A stretch of 64,000 nt of DNA from Escherichia coli (GTDB lineage: Bacteria > Pseudomonadota > Gammaproteobacteria > Enterobacterales > Enterobacteriaceae), in assembly GCF_024298765.1 (NCBI RefSeq), contig NZ_CP101210.1; one strand, 5' to 3'. Of this stretch, positions 1-51,145 are shown piece by piece. The notes beneath the pieces are model-generated. The model did no database searches, was not told where the DNA came from, and worked only from the letters and a program-made list of their open reading frames with translations. The stretch's first letter is position 1. Each line of letters begins with the position of its first letter. The position numbers and the translations under genes were made by a program.

Positions 1-1109
1 CCAAACGCCTCTTTCATCCGATCCTCACTGACCACAAAGGCGCGAAGCTGGTCGGCATCATCAACACCGCGCGCCACCATTCCCTGGCGTTCGGTATTAA
101 TTTGCCAGCGTAAATCCTGACGCTGGGTTTCGCCTGCCAGATGCAGCGGTAATTCCGGCGTTTTGATTTTCACCAGCATCGCCGGGAGTTTCAGCGGCGT
201 GTTATTGCCGAGAAGATTTTTTGCCAGCACCATCGCGCTAAGTTGAATCGGCTGGAGGAACGGCAATACCTGACCGTTAATTTCCGCGCAATCGCCCAGC
301 GCATAAATATCGGCATTACTGGTTTGCAGATAACTATCGACGCAAACGCCGCGATTAATCGTCAGCCCGGCGCGTCGTGCCAGGGCGGTTTCCGGGCGCA
401 GTCCGGTGGCGGCAATTACCGCATCCACTTCGATGCTGCGCTGGCGGTCCAGCGTTGCCAGAATGCCAGAATCCGTTTTTTCCAGCCCCTGCAACTGAGA
501 TTTTAACAGCAGATGAACGCCCATCTCCGTCAACCGATGCTGCAAGCGGCTGCTTACTTCCGGTGGCATTAACGCTGCCAGAATACTGGCAGCGTTGTCG
601 ATTAGCGTGACCGCTTTGCCTGCACGACAAAAATCCATCGCCAGTTCGCTACCAATCAAGCCACCGCCAACAATCAACACGCGTCGGGCATTCCGCAGTT
701 GCGTTTCACAGGCGCGATACTCTTGCTGACTATTTAACGTCAGCATTAACTCACGCCCGGGCACTGGCGGGACAAAGGCGCTGGCACCGGTTGCCAGCAC
801 CAGCTTGTCGTATTGCCACTGATTATTCTGACTTTTCACCACATGGGCTTCGGCATCGATATCCGTTACCCAGGTGTGCGGAAACAGGCGCAGATTAAAC
901 TGCTCGGCAAATTCACCTGCCGTCTGGCGGGTAAGGTCGTCGGCACGTTGCCCCTGACTGATAACATGGCTGAGGTCAGGTTTGTTGTACTCATCCATGC
1001 TGTCGGCGGCAATCAGGGTTAATGGAATACTGGCGTCCTGTTTGCGAATATTTTTCACCAGTTGGCGGGCGGCGAAGCCCGAACCAATGATCACAATGCC
1101 GTTGCTCAT
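1..1109 (-). CDS. norW: NADH:flavorubredoxin reductase NorW, 3' end truncated by window start
   Basis: Reverse strand translation from ATG at ~1109 begins [14 protein letters not shown]; start overlaps norV stop (ATGA); synteny with norV/norR. Confidence 0.85.
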
Positions 1110-2545
1110 TTTGCCTCCGATGCCAGTTCGTCAAAGACGTCTTTGCCGAGAGAGCATTCCGGGCACAGGAAGTTATCCGGGACTTCACGCCACGGCGTTC
1201 CTGGCGCAACGTCCTGCATTGGCTCGCCTTTTGCCGGATCGTAAATCCACTGGCAGACGCTGCATTGCATCCGTGGGCCGAGGTCAGCCGTCGTGGCGGC
1301 AGAGGTTTCTTCTTCAACCACCGTATTCACCGTGCTCTGTGGCAGCGGCGCGAGCGCCCACTGACGGGCGATTTCGCGACCGTGTTCACGACATAACTCC
1401 AGAGCGTCCTGGTCCGGTCGCCATTTGGCTTTCAGGCTAAGCGACATTTCGAAACCCGCATCCTGCAGGCGCGTGGAAAGACGATCCACCGCACCGCCGC
1501 TCCAGCCGTGAGAGCCGAAAGCGCTGGCGCGTTTGTTACGGAAGCGTAATCCGGTCATCTCCTCCACCAGCCCGGCGATTTTCGGCATCATCACGTTATT
1601 CATCGTCGAAGTGCCGACCAGCACGCCTTTTGAGCGGAAGACATTGGTCAGGATTTCGTTTTTATCGCTTCGGGCGACGTTGAAAATTTTCACCGCTACG
1701 CGTGGGTCGGTTTCCGCAATACCCTGGGCTATAGCATCGGCCATCATGCGGGTATTATTCGACATGGTGTCGTAGAAAATGGTGATTCTGTCTTCCTGAT
1801 AATCCGCCGCCCATTTCAGGTACAGCTCGACAATTTGCGTCGGGTTATCGCGCCATACCACGCCGTGAGAGGTCGCTATCATATCGACTGGTAAGTTAAA
1901 GCCCAGGATCTCGGTAATTTTCGGCGTTACCAGGCGGCTGAACGGCGTCAGGATATTGGCGTAGTAACGCTGGCACTGCTCGAAAAGCTCCGTCTGATCC
2001 ACTTCATCGTTGAACAGATGCTCGTCGCAGTAGTGCTGACCGAAAGCATCGTTACTGAACAGCACCGCGTCGCCTGTCAGGTAAGTCATCATGCTGTCCG
2101 GCCAGTGCAGCATTGGCGTTTCGACAAAAATGAGTTGTTTGCCGTTGCCGATATCCAGCGTGTCGCCAGTTTTCACTACATTAAAATTCCACTCCGGATG
2201 ATGGTGATGACCATTTATCGAGTCGATAGCGTTGGCAGTACAGTAGATCGGCGTATCGGGAATTTGTGCCATCAGTTCGGTCAGCGCCCCGGCGTGGTCC
2301 TCTTCAGCATGGTTAATTACGATGTAATCGATATCCGCCAGATCGATTTCATTACGCAGGTTCTGCACAAATTCGCGGCTGAATTTATGGTCGACGGTGT
2401 CGATCAGCACGTTTTTTTCTTCGCGGATGAGGTAGCTGTTGTAGCTGCTGCCGCGCAGCGTTTTATATTCTGTACCGTGAAAATCACGCACTTCCCAGTC
2501 ACGTTGACCAACCCAATGAATGTTATTTTTCACCACAATAGACAT
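1106..2545 (-). CDS. norV: Anaerobic nitric oxide reductase flavorubredoxin NorV
   Basis: 479-aa ORF; metallo-beta-lactamase-like, flavodoxin-like and C-terminal rubredoxin CxxC...CxxC; divergent from norR. Confidence 0.93.
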
Positions 2546-16471: not shown

Positions 16472-16548
16472 GCATCCGTAGCTCAGCTGGATAGAGTACT
16501 CGGCTACGAACCGAGCGGTCGGAGGTTCGAATCCTCCCGGATGCACCA
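16472..16548 (+). tRNA. argV: tRNA-Arg (anticodon ACG), copy 1
   Basis: 77-nt GCATCCGTAGCTCAGCTGGATAGAGTACTCGGCTACGAACCGAGCGGTCGGAGGTTCGAATCCTCCCGGATGCACCA. Confidence 0.93.
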
Positions 16549-16746
16549 TATTCTACGTACCTTCAGCGATGAAGGTATGGAAGAGGTGGCGGTAATAACC
16601 GCAGGCACCAGGGAGGATAACGTTGCTTTAGCAACGGCCCGAAGGGCGAGCCGCAAGGCGAGTAATCCTCCCGGATGCACCATCTCTTACTTGATAGGGC
16701 TTTAGTAGCGGTATCAAAAAATCTGCAGTAAAGTAAGTTTCCCGAT
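16549..16746 (+). repeat. tRNA-cluster spacer repeat ending in a duplicated tRNA-Arg 3' end
   Basis: Hairpins cttcagcgatgaag and gttgctttagcaac, then cctcccggatgcacca without a preceding tRNA body; near-identical copy at 17103-17236. Confidence 0.7.
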
Positions 16747-44932: not shown

Positions 44933-46009
<1,077 letters not shown>

Positions 46010-46440
46010 TTACATATTGTTTTCTTATTGCGATCAAAAACAACAAATTAATAACAAATAATGTGAGGGATAAGAATTGGGTTGAAAGGAAATGAATAAT
46101 TAAAACAATATATTAAGTGTGCTTATACTCTTTTTCGAACTGGTGGCATTTGTTTAAATGCTATTTAAACTGCTTTTCCAGAGTTCAACTTACTGAGTTC
46201 CGTGTCGACTAATGTGAGTAAGATCAATCGCATCCAACCTATGTTACTTGATGGAATCGATAACAATATTAATGAATATACAGATTCCGGGAAGGCTGGC
46301 TATGGGGGCAAATTATTCTCTTTCTGGCAACGGGTAAATAACAGTGACCATTTGTCGAGAAGCTGATACTGAGCTGAGGGATACTGTATATGTCTGGACT
46401 GTAATTGGATGAATTCTATTCAGGGCGGGTCAGGACCAAT

Positions 46441-46466
46441 AAAAAAGCCCGCATCAGCGGGCTTTA
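46441..46466 (-). terminator. Rho-independent terminator (reverse strand)
   Basis: Hairpin aagcccgc-atca-gcgggctt preceded by A6 on the top strand (T6 after the hairpin on the reverse strand). Confidence 0.6.
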
Positions 46467-46592
46467 ATGTCATAGGGAGTCGCGACTCCGTTGCGTATCC
46501 TTTTTTGTCTCCTCACCGTCTGGTCGGTGTCCTGCTGAGACTTATAACTTCCTGTTTTTGTTGGTGTAGTCCTTACACCGTCCAATCATGAT

Positions 46593-46624
46593 TGGTGGAG
46601 CTGGCGGGAGTTGAACCCGTGTCC
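46593..46624 (-). other. att core: duplicated 3' end of tmRNA (ssrA), 32 nt, no tmRNA body
   Basis: Reverse strand reads GGACACGGGTTCAACTCCCGCCAGCTCCACCA, one mismatch to the remembered E. coli ssrA 3' terminus; upstream sequence does not continue as ssrA. Confidence 0.7.
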
Positions 46625-47050
46625 ATAGTTATGTAATTCATTGAATTTAAATAGCCAAATATTGTTGATTTTACAAGCGGCTCTTTTGCGGAACTTTTTC
46701 TGTCCTGTTACTGTCTTACTATTTATTTTAAAATAGTTTCATTTGGAATTAATGGTTTGTGGTTGCAGTTTCGGAGATAGATAGCATTTTTTGCTAAAAA
46801 ATATTTTTATAAAAAATGTGTGTAAAAATGATGTTATGCACAGATTTATGCACAGAGGCTTTGTGATAAACCAGATTGTTTTGGATAAGTTTGTTTTTTT
46901 GTGATTTGTCAACAATATTATTGACTCTTGTTACTAAAGTGAGTGTTTTCTAAGGTGGTCAGAAGTTGTCCCTTCATGTAATCTTATTAGCCATAAAGAA
47001 CAAAAAATAATTCAACATCATTACCAACTATTTGTAAGATAAGGTTTTTA

Positions 47051-47866
47051 ATGTTGCAGCCAGCAAAAAAAGCATCAGTTATTAGCGCGCGGCTAACGAA
47101 ATACCTCAAAGATGGAGTGAGGATTGATGACTTTAGCTTTAGAAGGATGTTACGTGAGATTGAAGCACTTAGAGATCCTGTCTCTGAGGACTATCTTTTA
47201 GCGTTGGTCTATGGTGCACATGGCCAAGTGAATGAGGCGATAGGCTTCTTTGAGCGTTCCTTGCAGGTATGCCATAATGAGGTTGTTGCAAAGAATTTTC
47301 TTGTTTTCTTGTCAGATTACGGTACGTTGAAGAAAAGCTTTGAAACAAGCATTAAGCTTGCTGAAAGCTTCATATCCCCGTTTATTTATCTTCAAGCTTA
47401 TGAAAACTCCCTCTTTATGGGGAAGATGGCGTTGGCGGAGAAGTATTTCCAGTCATACTCTAAATTGTTCGGAGATAAGGAGCCTGAAAAAATGGACAAC
47501 AATCTTGATGAAGTTGTTTCCCAGGTCGAATCCTTTAAGCAACGTGCCGATCTTTCTGGTTTAGAATATGAACTTATTTTCAATAATGTAGCCAATGTCA
47601 TGGATTCTCAGAAGGTTCATCTTTCGGGAATGCGTTTTTATAATATTTCGGAAGAGAAAGTGAATGCGATTGTATTCATGACAAAGTCTTCTGATGCTGA
47701 ACAAATCGCTGATATGAATATTGAGCTTGCTTTTTCAATGGCTGAGCACGATTGTTTAGTCGGTAAAGATTTTGCTGTTTGGTTTGAATGTAAAGACACA
47801 CATATTGAGCAGAATGCTATCTCCGAATTAGGTCTGATTACCCGGAGGGTTGCACATGCCGGTTAA
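47051..47866 (+). CDS. Hypothetical protein, gene 1 of a two-gene cargo operon between att core and int
   Basis: 271-aa ORF, about 40 percent GC by eye, no TM, no recognizable catalytic motif; stop overlaps the start of the next ORF. Confidence 0.6.
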   Translation: MLQPAKKASVISARLTKYLKDGVRIDDFSFRRMLREIEALRDPVSEDYLLALVYGAHGQVNEAIGFFERSLQVCHNEVVAKNFLVFLSDYGTLKKSFETSIKLAESFISPFIYLQAYENSLFMGKMALAEKYFQSYSKLFGDKEPEKMDNNLDEVVSQVESFKQRADLSGLEYELIFNNVANVMDSQKVHLSGMRFYNISEEKVNAIVFMTKSSDAEQIADMNIELAFSMAEHDCLVGKDFAVWFECKDTHIEQNAISELGLITRRVAHAG

Positions 47867-48239
47867 TAGTCAAGATTTTCTCGGTTTTGCAAAAGACTGT
47901 CATCAACGTAATGACGAAATCGGCTATCGAAATGCTATAGCAAGATCCTACTATGGCGCTTACCATCATGTCTTGCCTTGTATGGTAAACGGGCCGAAAG
48001 ACAGTCATCAGGGGCTAATCAATTATTTGCAGGGCGATGCTTCAAGAGGAAGTGAAGTATATGAAGCTAGATATCTAAAAGGGATTAGTTTTATCCTGAG
48101 TCAACTTAAAGCTCAGAGGATTGTTGCAGACTATCGACTTGATCAATCGGTCACTTCTAAACAGTCTGAAGTTGCGATTCTAACAACTGAGAGGCTCTTT
48201 GCTAAGTGTACGGAAATGCTTAAATCGAGAGCCTCCTAA
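47856..48239 (+). CDS. Hypothetical protein, gene 2 of the cargo operon (unverified HEPN-like R-x6-H motif)
   Basis: ATG at 47856 preceded by SD ggaggg; about 127 aa; motif RSYYGAYHH; terminator hairpin aaagccacttaagtggcttttttt immediately after. Confidence 0.55.
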   Translation: MPVNSQDFLGFAKDCHQRNDEIGYRNAIARSYYGAYHHVLPCMVNGPKDSHQGLINYLQGDASRGSEVYEARYLKGISFILSQLKAQRIVADYRLDQSVTSKQSEVAILTTERLFAKCTEMLKSRAS

Positions 48240-48252
48240 TTGATAAAGCCAC

Positions 48253-49425
48253 TTAAGTGGCTTTTTTTGTGATATTGCTGGTCGTATTACCGTCATATTC
48301 CTTTAAATATAAACCATAATGACGAAATAACATTTCCGGCCCTTTATGCCCCATTTGAGCTGCAAGCCAAAACAGGTTTGCTCCCCGGCTGATATGGCGG
48401 GTGGCGAATGTATGCCTAGTTTGATATGGATTTCTGTAACGAATACCTGCTTTTCGCAATGTTGGCACCCATGCTTTTTTCCTGATTGCATCAGCACTTG
48501 CCCAAGGCTTATTGGTCTTTGGATCTTCAAAGACAGTAGTATCCTTCATGAATGTAAATGGCTTCTGATTTATCAGCGCCAACATTGCCTCTTCTGTCAG
48601 TTCAACTTTCCGAGTACCTGCTTTTGTCTTTGTCCCTTTGATAACACCGACAACACTTGCGCTCTGGACATGGGCAGTTTTTCCAACAAAGTCGATATCA
48701 CGCCATCGAAGGGCACATAATTCAGAACTACGCAGGCCTGTATGTATAGCGAACCGGAACAGATTTTCCCATTGTTTGTTTCCGGCTGCTGCTAGTAATG
48801 CATCAACTTCTGCTGGTGATAGCGGATCAACTACGTAGCTGCTTTCTGCTTCTGACTTATCACTTTGGTAGCGCGAAGCTGTTACTAACGATACGGGGTT
48901 AATTTGAAGTACCCCATCGGTCACGGCTTCATCAAGTGCTGACCGCAGGAAAGATAACTGGTTGCGAATTGTTTTTAAGGTCGTTTTCTGATTTTGAATC
49001 CACGCTTTCAGGGTTGCTGGTGTTAATTCACTTGCAGGGCAAATGTGAAGTGAGGCTAACGCACTACGGCATTTTTTATAGCCACCAATCGTAGAGGGTG
49101 AAAGTTTTCTTGTTTCGCAGATTTCAAGATATTCGTCCAGGTACATCTTTACCGTTTTGCCTGCAGCAGCATTACCAAAAATTTTCAAACGAGCAGAACG
49201 GGGAAAATATTCTGCATAAATGAATGTTCCCCTTTCGATCTTATTATGGATTTCGCCGAGTGTACGCTCGGCGTATTTAATGTTCTTTGGTGTTACTTCC
49301 AGATTGGAAAGCGGCTCACGACATCTAACTCCTTTGTAGGTGAAAGTTATATTGATCGTTTCTCCCTGGCGGTGTTTCCTGATTGTTACGCCGCGCGGTA
49401 GTTTGAGCAGTTTTGTCTGGCCCAT
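48253..49425 (-). CDS. int: Phage integrase (tyrosine recombinase)
   Basis: 390-aa ORF with N-terminal arm-binding-like domain and C-terminal catalytic region (RHTFATRH ... LFRHYGLY). Confidence 0.9.
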   Translation of the reverse strand: MGQTKLLKLPRGVTIRKHRQGETINITFTYKGVRCREPLSNLEVTPKNIKYAERTLGEIHNKIERGTFIYAEYFPRSARLKIFGNAAAGKTVKMYLDEYLEICETRKLSPSTIGGYKKCRSALASLHICPASELTPATLKAWIQNQKTTLKTIRNQLSFLRSALDEAVTDGVLQINPVSLVTASRYQSDKSEAESSYVVDPLSPAEVDALLAAAGNKQWENLFRFAIHTGLRSSELCALRWRDIDFVGKTAHVQSASVVGVIKGTKTKAGTRKVELTEEAMLALINQKPFTFMKDTTVFEDPKTNKPWASADAIRKKAWVPTLRKAGIRYRNPYQTRHTFATRHISRGANLFWLAAQMGHKGPEMLFRHYGLYLKEYDGNTTSNITKKAT

Positions 49426-49592
49426 TTTGCAACCTCACTAAGATCAATCCACCTCTCCTTAACGCCTTCAACCTTTAAAACCTGAACACCTTCACGCCAA
49501 ACACCGCGCTGTACACGTTTGTTTATTGCTTCAGGAGTTTCGCCAGTTTCTTTGCAATAAGTTGAGATAGGAACACAATCGAGGTTCAGCAT
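49386..49592 (-). CDS. Excisionase-like small DNA-binding protein
   Basis: Small ORF overlapping the int start; start placed at MLNLD with SD GGAG; position typical for xis. Confidence 0.5.
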   Translation of the reverse strand: MLNLDCVPISTYCKETGETPEAINKRVQRGVWREGVQVLKVEGVKERWIDLSEVAKWARQNCSNYRAA

Positions 49593-49633
49593 ACGTTTCT
49601 CCATTATCCCGTCTGCACACGGGAGCAACATTA

Positions 49634-50524
49634 TTAACGAATAGTGTCGTTACTTTGAAGTACAGCAAATGCCATTAATACTTCTAAAGTATATCTTCTA
49701 TAAAATTTAACAAAACCAACATAGAAAACATAGACGAAGAAAAAGCTAAGCATTATTGAAAGTAAACTATAAAGATAATCACTATGAGTACATAATCGAT
49801 AAATAAAGGTTGGAACTGATACCCAAAATGAAATTATAAAGATTAAACATATGTTTCTGCAAAAACCATATAATGCAACATAGTTTTGAATTTTTGTTTG
49901 ATGTTGTTTTGAAAACTCATAAACATAATGATATGCCAATCTGAAGAGATCATCATCAAGTCCGTTTTTATCTTGTAATAATTGGCGATTTGTTATGAAC
50001 TTTTTCTCATAACCTTCTTTGATCATTAACCATGTTGTATTAGCTAAATGAAATGGTAGAGATTGAGAATAACATAGTTTTTGTGTTATAAAATCCCATA
50101 GTATTATTGGGCATAATACGCATTTGATTATGCGATTCTTTATTTTTGTTTTTTTATCAGCGCTTCTCTCATCGCATGATGGGCTACAAATGCTTTCTGA
50201 GGTATCTATCAATTTTTTAAATAGATATTTGGAAGGATATCCTAATTCTTTATTCATGTATTTTTCGATAAAAAATGCTGACGTGATAGAAATAAAATGT
50301 CCAGCTATATAAGATATAATAACTATTGAAGCGTAGTTCAAAATGCCAAAGATTTGACTTTGACCTCTGAGCAATTCACTTAAGTCAATAACAATATCTA
50401 GATCGAATGTCAAACCACAGAAATACATTAATAGGATAAAAAAACCACCTGGTATTAAATATCCAAGAAAGTCATAGAATGAGAATGGATTTTGATTCAT
50501 TGTTGCTCTCCAATAATTTTTCAA
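49634..50524 (-). CDS. Hypothetical polytopic membrane protein (very AT-rich cargo gene)
   Basis: 296-aa ORF with hydrophobic segments at both ends; roughly 30 percent GC by eye; sits between xis and the YfdR-like gene. Confidence 0.6.
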   Translation of the reverse strand: MKNYWRATMNQNPFSFYDFLGYLIPGGFFILLMYFCGLTFDLDIVIDLSELLRGQSQIFGILNYASIVIISYIAGHFISITSAFFIEKYMNKELGYPSKYLFKKLIDTSESICSPSCDERSADKKTKIKNRIIKCVLCPIILWDFITQKLCYSQSLPFHLANTTWLMIKEGYEKKFITNRQLLQDKNGLDDDLFRLAYHYVYEFSKQHQTKIQNYVALYGFCRNICLIFIISFWVSVPTFIYRLCTHSDYLYSLLSIMLSFFFVYVFYVGFVKFYRRYTLEVLMAFAVLQSNDTIR

Positions 50525-50608
50525 TTTGTAATATAACCTATATCTATATGTTAATAAATTACTTATATGTTCTTTTATGGCAGAGTTTGAATTCGTACGT
50601 GCTGATTT

Positions 50609-51145
50609 TTACGACTCAGTTAACTCTTTAAAGCGTTCCATAAACATCCCATAGGTATGGCCTGGCGACAGTGGAATAACTTTGAACATCTCTGTTGCCG
50701 GGATACCTTCCAGTACGGGCCAGAAAGAGCCATCATCAAGCCCGAGATCGCGGCGTTCGGTTGCCAGCATGATGAGATCGGCATATTTCACGGGCGTACT
50801 CATAACCGGGGGTAACCCGTATTTCTCACGGATTACGGCGTCTATTTTTTCTTCCATCCGTTTATAGTCAGGAAGAAGGCGTTTCAGTGGAGCCGGGATG
50901 TCCTGGCAATACGCTTCTGTTGCATCATGCATTAACGCTTCAAAAGCAAATTCCTGCGGTACCAGCTGGCTGCAAAGCACCGCATGTTGGGCGACGCTGT
51001 AGAAGTGTGAAAGATGGCCGGCAAAGCGACAGATATTTGAAAGGGAAACCGCGATATCGTTAATATCGATGTTGTCTTTATTTATCCTGTCATAATAAAA
51101 ATGTTTCCCGGAAAAAGTTTTAATAAATGACATTTTGTTCTCCAC
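50609..51145 (-). CDS. HD-domain phosphohydrolase (YfdR-like 5'-deoxynucleotidase family)
   Basis: 178-aa ORF with H...HD motif (AQHAVL ... LMHDATEAY); same size as CPS-53 YfdR. Confidence 0.7.
   Translation of the reverse strand: MENKMSFIKTFSGKHFYYDRINKDNIDINDIAVSLSNICRFAGHLSHFYSVAQHAVLCSQLVPQEFAFEALMHDATEAYCQDIPAPLKRLLPDYKRMEEKIDAVIREKYGLPPVMSTPVKYADLIMLATERRDLGLDDGSFWPVLEGIPATEMFKVIPLSPGHTYGMFMERFKELTES

Follow-up and report, generated by a model that had tools for sequence, protein, structure and literature searches.

A distant relative of Csx27, encoded by an AT-rich cargo cassette of an Escherichia coli lambdoid prophage, is a candidate phage-exclusion protein

The inner-membrane exclusion proteins classically known from prophages, such as RexB of lambda, SieA and SieB of P22, Imm of T4 and gp15 of HK97, are small multi-helix proteins encoded by dispensable cargo of temperate phages, which is often AT-rich and sits in variable slots. 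Here we analyse a 64,000-nt stretch of Escherichia coli DNA (contig NZ_CP101210.1; hereafter the window, to which coordinates refer unless another locus is named) that carries, within a lambdoid prophage, an AT-rich gene for a 288-amino-acid (aa) protein with four transmembrane (TM) helices. The protein shares with these exclusion proteins a multi-helix layout in the inner membrane and the character of AT-rich cargo in a variable slot. No sequence or fold similarity to them was detectable, and its family differs from them in having a large conserved cytoplasmic domain, in its spread over many phyla and in its occurrence in non-phage contexts. The family is found repeatedly beside anti-phage systems, which makes the gene a good candidate phage-exclusion gene, with a function inferred by association only. 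We put the probability that the protein has a role in excluding other phages, by blocking the entry of DNA or through a triggered membrane lesion, at roughly one half.

The described protein to which the family can be related is Csx27, a membrane accessory protein of type VI-B1 (Cas13b) CRISPR systems. An expansive family of four-helix proteins around Csx27, linked to ubiquitin-system, competence, DNA-modification and WYL genes, was reportedly described by Makarova, Gao, Zhang and Koonin in 2019, and papers citing that work say that its members were proposed to be channels for single-stranded DNA. According to Smargon et al., Csx27 lowered Cas13b interference up to 1e5-fold, and no homologs of it were seen outside type VI-B loci.

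When the 288-aa protein was compared with the 5027 models of PADLOC, the only matches were Csx27 (E 1.4e-5, residues 6-268 against profile positions 4-188 of 206) and tm_4, a second Cas13b-associated membrane model. Csx27 was also the top PADLOC match for 10 of 10 diverse family members (best E 1.3e-8), with the N-terminal motif of the family at profile position 4 in all 10, and the family consensus reached E 9e-12. The NCBIfam equivalog model of Csx27, NF040557, was matched in the same register, at 14.9 bits by the protein and 19 bits by the consensus, against a cut-off of 65. An intermediate of 250 aa scored E 9.3e-13 against Csx27, 1.6e-10 against tm_4 and 2.8e-17 against the family profile; a search for homologs of this intermediate returned no named proteins. 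The initial annotation of the window recognised no motif in the protein, which holds for Pfam and no longer holds in view of this reproducible distant relationship. These observations indicate that the family is distantly but consistently related to Csx27, as a branch of the same superfamily rather than as Csx27 orthologs, and very probably falls within the family attributed to Makarova and colleagues.

Both the family and Csx27 have four TM helices with the N-terminal motif in the same register, and several members are colinear with Csx27 through all four helices. Relatives of the 288-aa protein adjoin ubiquitin-system enzymes and DNA-modification operons, as reported for the Csx27 family; such links are absent at the copy in the window, which is solitary in its prophage. 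The Csx27 profiles span ~206-223 positions, whereas the window protein is 288 aa long and has a ~130-aa cytoplasmic domain between helices 2 and 3. For the family, we assembled 78 genomic and 59 viral (IMG/VR) loci and an alignment of 113 members. No cas13b gene was found in the window or near any of these loci, and the 288-aa gene has no CRISPR array nearby.

Three side observations concern other members of this protein landscape. PDC-M48A, a PADLOC 'phage defence candidate' of ~164 aa, weakly shares the N-terminal motif of the family (E 7e-5 to 0.09, in comparison with members P0151, P0187, P0321, P0322 and P0324), and may be another short branch of the superfamily. A metagenome scan by the Cas13b repeat pattern returned only Porphyromonas-type loci. 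One of these loci (L097), with a 1119-aa Cas13b and an array, has at 604-1149 (minus strand) a 181-aa one-helix accessory gene, which is probably of the Csx28 type and not Csx27.

An exhaustive search returned 659 family clusters at 50% identity, nearly all of 270-300 aa, and the genomic loci are spread over Gamma- and Betaproteobacteria, Bacteroidota, Firmicutes, Verrucomicrobiota, Chloroflexota and further groups. The guanine-cytosine (GC) content of the family gene is below that of its surroundings in 66 of 68 loci from many phyla (median -7.5 points, down to -27), which marks it as a horizontally moving accessory gene. No partner gene is conserved throughout the 78 loci, and at least 18 of them are linked to defence genes. 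At type I restriction-modification systems, the family gene lies 15 bp after HsdR-HsdM-HsdS on the same strand (L071, 1947-8873), between HsdS and HsdR, 466 bp after HsdS and again on the same strand (L023, 4614-13831), or ahead of further type I genes (L032). At type III systems, it lies 67 bp after Mod-Res on the same strand (L076, 3036-8900), 16 bp after a Mod gene that itself follows Res-like and SIR2-like genes, likewise on the same strand (L074), or beside Mod, again on the same strand (L052). Another copy adjoins a SIR2-like gene (L064), and a divergent 250-aa relative lies 95 bp after the same-strand gene of a 769-aa E1-E2-JAB protein (L081); a 769-aa neighbour at L072 proved not to be this enzyme. 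The close same-strand placement at restriction-modification operons suggests that the membrane protein is co-transcribed with the enzymes.

Six loci from Bacteroidales or Bacilli (L054, L063, L066, L075, L079 and L080; the one from Bacilli is in a metagenome-assembled genome) share a three-gene operon in which a Cas2-like gene (92-97 aa, PADLOC Cas2 E ~2e-3) and a PIN_8 nuclease gene (304-326 aa, Pfam E 4.5e-23) accompany the family gene, as at 6766-8375 of L075. By its gene content, this operon looks like an undescribed candidate defence module. The large same-strand neighbours at L046, L047, L015 and L038 gave no PADLOC match, so not all big upstream operons are defence systems.

The tight placement within restriction-modification operons could also be read by analogy with Csx27, in that the protein would modulate or antagonise a defence or DNA-uptake system of the host or of a co-resident element. 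The DNA channels predicted by Makarova et al. 2019, as relayed by citing papers, would fit such a role, as would the up to 1e5-fold cut in Cas13b interference reported for Csx27 by Smargon et al. However, E. coli has no Cas13b, the prophage gene stands alone with no system to modulate, and the channel idea has no experimental support. We therefore regard a modulator role as quite improbable for the window protein.

The phage-exclusion reading draws on phage genomes as well. P2-like phages have a homolog of 42% identity between the portal gene gpQ and the replication gene gpA, a region defined as a phage defence hotspot by Rousset et al. 2022 (PMC9122126). Table S5B of that study lists as system #3 a 'DUF4760' protein with, as protein 2, a '4 TM' protein, which is the third commonest cassette with 1102 occurrences. 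The sequence printed there for the '4 TM' protein belongs to the 288-aa family (42% identity over the full length, E 2e-64), and Phobius predicts 4 TM helices for it. The P2 and window versions are alike in their motifs and as AT-rich phage cargo in a variable slot. They differ in partner and in position. The P2 cassette, which includes a one-helix DUF4760 partner, is found next to cos; the gene in the window stands without DUF4760, and its neighbours are yfdR on one side and xis on the other in a lambdoid prophage. A tblastn search with the DUF4760 protein found no match in the window or in the other loci, except in the P2-like phage (L082).

In the window, the gene itself forms a self-contained piece of acquired cargo at the distal end of the early-left operon, in a prophage of the CFT073/UTI89 type. 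On the minus strand, the order is cI-type repressor, yfdP, yfdQ, yfdR, the 288-aa gene, xis and int, which bears out the placement between xis and the early genes in the initial annotation; beyond int come a two-gene cargo pair and the chromosomal genes glaH-lhgO-gabDTP. A sibling prophage in E. coli AZ146 (L084) is 97% identical to the window in int/xis and in yfdR-yfdQ, and homology between the two breaks at 49623/49624 and 50613/50614. A 610-bp segment takes the place of the cassette in the sibling; it encodes one product of 71 aa and a 'phage protein' of 120 aa, the frame of the latter overlapping yfdR. Other related prophages have yfdS/yfdT-type or ea22-type genes in this slot. The AT-rich gene is thus a 990-bp replacement cassette, which stands in for the small yfdS-type genes that are usual directly upstream of xis-int. 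Its GC content is 28.5% (22% at third codon positions), compared with ~42-50% in the phage genes on either side and 50.5% over the window as a whole, and the dip is limited to about 49.6-50.6 kb. The compositional contrast noted in the initial annotation is thereby confirmed and the separate acquisition that it claimed is supported, the latter also by the low GC of the family gene in other genomes. No Rfam family was found inside or beside the cassette.

The same slot is used in other phages. In 31 of the 59 viral loci, the family gene, ~200-270 bp holding xis and the integrase gene follow each other on one strand, and the Klebsiella phage P7641 is an annotated example. Alleles found there reach down to 48% identity, and the integrases next to them fall into five or more size classes, which shows that the slot recurs across lambdoid lineages. 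The superinfection-exclusion or abortive-infection role first proposed for the gene is supported by association only, namely by the P2 defence hotspot, by restriction-modification, ubiquitin-like and PIN neighbours, and by the xis-int slot.

If the phage-exclusion reading is correct, the membrane protein of the prophage cassette would serve competition of phage against phage and would act at the inner membrane. It could block the entry of incoming phage DNA (superinfection exclusion), or its conserved cytoplasmic site could sense infection, upon which a leak would be opened or the cell arrested (abortive infection). Because the gene stands alone in prophages, the protein would have to act without a dedicated partner.

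The AlphaFold model of the protein is confident and all-helical, with a predicted local distance difference test score (pLDDT) of 90.5 and a predicted template modelling score (pTM) of 0.89. Hydropathy and AlphaFold concur on the four TM helices, which are arranged as two pairs around the cytoplasmic domain and followed by a C-terminal helix, consistent with the hydrophobic ends and soluble centre noted at first. Among the 113 aligned members, Lys and Arg are abundant in the central domain and at the C-terminus, and the two short loops are neutral or acidic (family mean for the central domain, 18.3 K/R versus 12.7 D/E). According to the positive-inside rule, this bias places both termini and the central domain in the cytoplasm. 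The near-invariant motif NPFSxYDFLGYLIPG (residues 4-18) precedes and enters helix 1 from the cytoplasmic side. Helix 2 contains the conserved residues Y64, G67, H68 and S74 and extends into the cytoplasm up to the invariant E79. The cytoplasmic domain contains GYPSKY, two variable loops of low confidence, the conserved H191 and H200, and a hydrophobic helix-Pro-helix at residues 116-139, which may be re-entrant into the membrane. Helix 3 opens with QNYVALYGFxR, in which R215 is invariant, and helix 4 closes with KFYRRxTLE, in which K265 is invariant, leading into the cytoplasmic C-terminal helix.

All of these strongly conserved positions and motifs are at the membrane's cytoplasmic face, and so is each of the well-conserved polar residues D10, H68, E79, H191, H200, N206, R215, K265 and E273. 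Nine near-invariant polar residues at one membrane face, together with a possible re-entrant helix-Pro-helix, would also suit lysogenic conversion by an enzyme or transporter embedded in the membrane, one that modifies the envelope, a lipid or a small molecule and has the conserved His, Glu, Asp, Arg and Lys residues as its active site. Prophages of this group have envelope-modifying genes near int, such as the gtr genes of CPS-53, which counts in the same direction. Nevertheless, no similarity to an enzyme or transporter was found in Pfam, NCBIfam or the PDB, no metabolic partner gene is conserved in the 78 loci, and longer relatives gain just membrane helices between helices 3 and 4 and no fused enzyme or catalytic domain. 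In our judgement, the probability of an enzyme or transporter is low.

Database searches leave the protein without a named function. Pfam gave nothing for the protein or the 113 aligned members, except for scattered weak matches that differ from member to member, NCBIfam gave just the Csx27 match below the cut-off, and the PDB held no sequence match. Among models of validated defence proteins, there was likewise no match in Pfam or NCBIfam, and PADLOC gave just the weak Csx27 and tm_4 matches. PHROG 12528, a family of unknown function, matches the protein end to end. Its neighbours in the AlphaFold database (AFDB50) are all 'uncharacterized'; the 'RDD domain' labels on a few of these matches are unsupported by Pfam. 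Foldseek found no significant fold match among the solved structures of the PDB. The top matches were MotA, PomA and ExbB, stator proteins built to the same gross layout, in which a large cytoplasmic domain separates membrane helices 2 and 3, as by extension is ZorA of Zorya. At E 0.4-5 and TM-scores of 0.17-0.24, these are no real structural matches, and the 288-aa protein differs from stators in having no MotB-like partner. No homology to a housekeeping transporter or a lysis protein, which the initial annotation had named as grounds for giving up its proposal, was found in Pfam, NCBIfam or the PDB. A holin or lysis protein would be 70-150 aa long and encoded beside endolysin and spanin in the late lysis cassette, whereas this gene lies in the early-left/int region and encodes 288 aa with a large cytoplasmic domain.

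The open reading frame (ORF) extends over 49634..50524 on the minus strand, with 296 codons from a TTG, the length given to the protein at first. The frame stands, and the true start is most likely the ATG at 50500. This start is preferred for its Shine-Dalgarno spacing, for its agreement with the RefSeq start, and for the conserved N-terminus Mxx(x)NPFS, at which all homologs start; the TTGGAG of the ribosome-binding region is kept in alleles of 85%, 78% and 52% identity. The 288-aa product is WP_001075212.1, and RefSeq annotates the same protein in strain 1500 and CFT073 (C_RS15230 in the latter). The stop codon, TAA at 49636-49634, is counted within the coding sequence.

The gene is real and under selection. 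As it is annotated merely as 'hypothetical', has an unusual composition and has TTG as its longest start, one might suspect a functionless chance ORF or a decaying gene. At the composition of the gene, the expected spacing of stops is ~12 codons, and a run of 288 codons would stay open with a probability of ~3e-11. When the cassette was shuffled 2000 times, the longest frame had a mean of 64 codons and a maximum of 149, compared with 324 observed. The ratio of nonsynonymous to synonymous substitution rates (dN/dS) is 0.24 against the 78%-identical E. coli allele, which indicates a coding gene under selection, and the changes cluster in two loops. Together with at least 593 homologs of the same length, the invariant residues across the family clusters and the confident structure model, these values refute the suspicion, to which we assign a negligible probability. 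An opposite-strand ORF of 62 aa (50124-50312) has no support and was taken as a shadow of the AT-rich frame.

The expression of the gene bears on a further alternative. A candidate -10 hexamer, TATATT, aligns with TATAAT in alleles of 49-50% identity, which hints at a promoter of the gene's own. There is no terminator between yfdR and the 288-aa gene, and the gene occupies the yfdS/yfdT position at the end of the early-left operon. It could therefore be an accessory gene like those of the 'exo-xis region', with the early-left promoter as its sole source of expression, in infection or induction, and would then tune host physiology or the lysis-lysogeny choice for its own phage and not exclude others; the lack of a strong promoter of its own points the same way. 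Precedents come from yfdQ-yfdR-yfdS-yfdT of K-12, the overexpression of which affects DnaA and replication initiation (PMC4776307), and from lambda exo-xis genes such as ea22, which sway the developmental choice (PMC10834534).

On the other hand, members of the family occur well beyond phages, attached to restriction-modification, ubiquitin-like and PIN operons, as well as in the P2 hotspot, none of which are early-operon contexts. The distribution of alleles in E. coli also speaks against a purely lytic-cycle function. A 78%-identical allele follows yfdR in the corresponding position of a prophage remnant that lacks an integrase and adjoins zur-dinF-lexA (L087-L092), where such a function would be useless. 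There, a PyocinActivator-like gene of 93 aa and a SocA/Panacea-domain gene (Panacea-type toxin-antitoxin) come next, and very many E. coli draft assemblies (2138 index blocks) have the remnant at one and the same fixed site of the chromosome. We consider a role confined to the early-left programme unlikely. The exact allele of the window is present in 204 of 5426 complete E. coli genomes (~4%), including CFT073 and UTI89, and a DNA-detectable homolog of some kind in 491 of them (~9%); the identical protein also occurs in E. coli S88 (UniProt B7MJR3).

Several points weigh against a phage-exclusion role. A consensus promoter scan upstream of the gene found no full or convincing promoter of its own, which makes its expression in the lysogen uncertain. 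Most of the 78 loci have no recognised defence neighbour, and some lie amid housekeeping genes. The sole tested relative, Csx27, decreases Cas13b interference where an increase would be expected of a defence helper, and the conserved cluster of His, Glu, Arg and Lys residues might just as well be catalytic. In P2, the gene comes with a DUF4760 partner that is absent in the window, and the P2 cassette was catalogued but is not listed among the cloned systems of Rousset et al. 2022 (PMC9122126). Finally, our literature search found no experimental or functional study of the protein or of any family member.

Table 1 Features of the cassette and its flanks in the window
Feature	Coordinates	Strand	Basis
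AT-rich cargo cassette, 990 bp, gene plus 113-bp upstream spacer	49624..50613	.	Homology breaks (blastn against L084, L085 and L086), composition
Coding sequence, 288-aa four-helix inner-membrane protein	49634..50500	-	ORF list, RefSeq identical copies, homologs, dN/dS, AlphaFold
Eight extra in-frame codons from TTG, most likely non-coding 5' leader	50501..50524	-	N-terminus conservation, Shine-Dalgarno inside, RefSeq start
Shine-Dalgarno GGAGAG, 5 nt before ATG (7 nt from GGAG core)	50506..50511	-	Read from sequence
Candidate -10 hexamer TATATT, 30 nt before ATG, no good -35	50530..50535	-	Upstream alignment
Alternative weak promoter-like site, TTCAAA, 18 nt, TATAAG	50562..50591	-	Read from sequence; under scan threshold
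TM helix 1, residues 8-31	50408..50479	-	Hydropathy, AlphaFold, conservation
TM helix 2, residues 52-76	50273..50347	-	AlphaFold, conservation map
Cytoplasmic domain, residues 77-205	49886..50272	-	K/R excess, conservation map, secondary structure
TM helix 3, residues 206-237	49790..49885	-	AlphaFold, conservation map
TM helix 4, residues 243-266	49703..49774	-	AlphaFold, conservation map
Excisionase gene xis, directly downstream of cassette	49386..49604	-	PHROG 2917, E 8e-45, from residue 10 of longest ORF
Tyrosine integrase gene	48253..49425	-	RefSeq 'site-specific integrase'
yfdR (5'-deoxynucleotidase), last conserved early-left operon gene; stop at cassette border	50609..51133	-	

Other features were noted elsewhere in the window. 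The cargo pair between the prophage end and int (47051-48239, plus strand) consists of two overlapping genes of ~39-41% GC, encoding 271 aa (PHROG 17809) and 129 aa (PHROG 5176). The sibling prophage of AZ146 has a different gene, of 259 aa, at this place, so that cargo varies in a second slot as well. An R-x6-H stretch, RSYYGAYH, occurs in the 129-aa protein, which gave a weak PADLOC HEPN_IX match (E 1.4e-3) and no Pfam match, and the pair is possibly a HEPN toxin or defence pair. An ORF-poor, AT-rich stretch (45911-47050) separates glaH from the prophage cargo. In it, the 3' end of transfer-messenger RNA (tmRNA) recurs as a 48-nt copy, GGACACGGGTTCAACTCCCGCCAGCTCCACCA, at 46593-46640 on the minus strand (Rfam RF00023, E 2e-5, below gathering). 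It looks like an attachment-site remnant of an ssrA-targeting element, and strain 1500 has an additional integrase-domain gene at its place. In the serV-argV cluster of transfer RNA (tRNA) genes, ARAGORN called an antisense tRNA-Arg(tcg) at 16492-16563 (minus strand) that overlaps tRNA-Arg(acg) at 16472-16548 (plus strand); this call is probably spurious.

The family has already been catalogued, as PHROG 12528 and as system #3 of Rousset et al., and the value of the window copy is that it is stand-alone, native to E. coli and easily tested. Csx27 has been without a mechanism since 2017, and the wider family has been described by computation only; the window gene is a native E. coli member present in the model uropathogens CFT073 and UTI89. 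A broader proposal, which we hold tentatively and think rather doubtful, is that the Csx27-like proteins of 280 aa are a widespread, self-sufficient membrane 'gate' module of immunity. On their own, as in this prophage, they would keep out incoming phage DNA or abort the infection. In association with restriction-modification, ubiquitin-like, PIN or Cas13b systems, they would link these to the passage of DNA across the inner membrane. If so, the copy in this E. coli prophage would become the first tractable model in which to study how Csx27 works, a problem not yet solved. Should the protein not be protective, a role in phage development or in the envelope would be indicated for a family of more than 650 clusters. 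If it is protective, an abundant single-gene membrane system would be added to the defence repertoire of prophages, the third commonest cassette of the P2 hotspot would be explained, and there would be a handle on why such proteins are wired to restriction-modification and ubiquitin-like operons.

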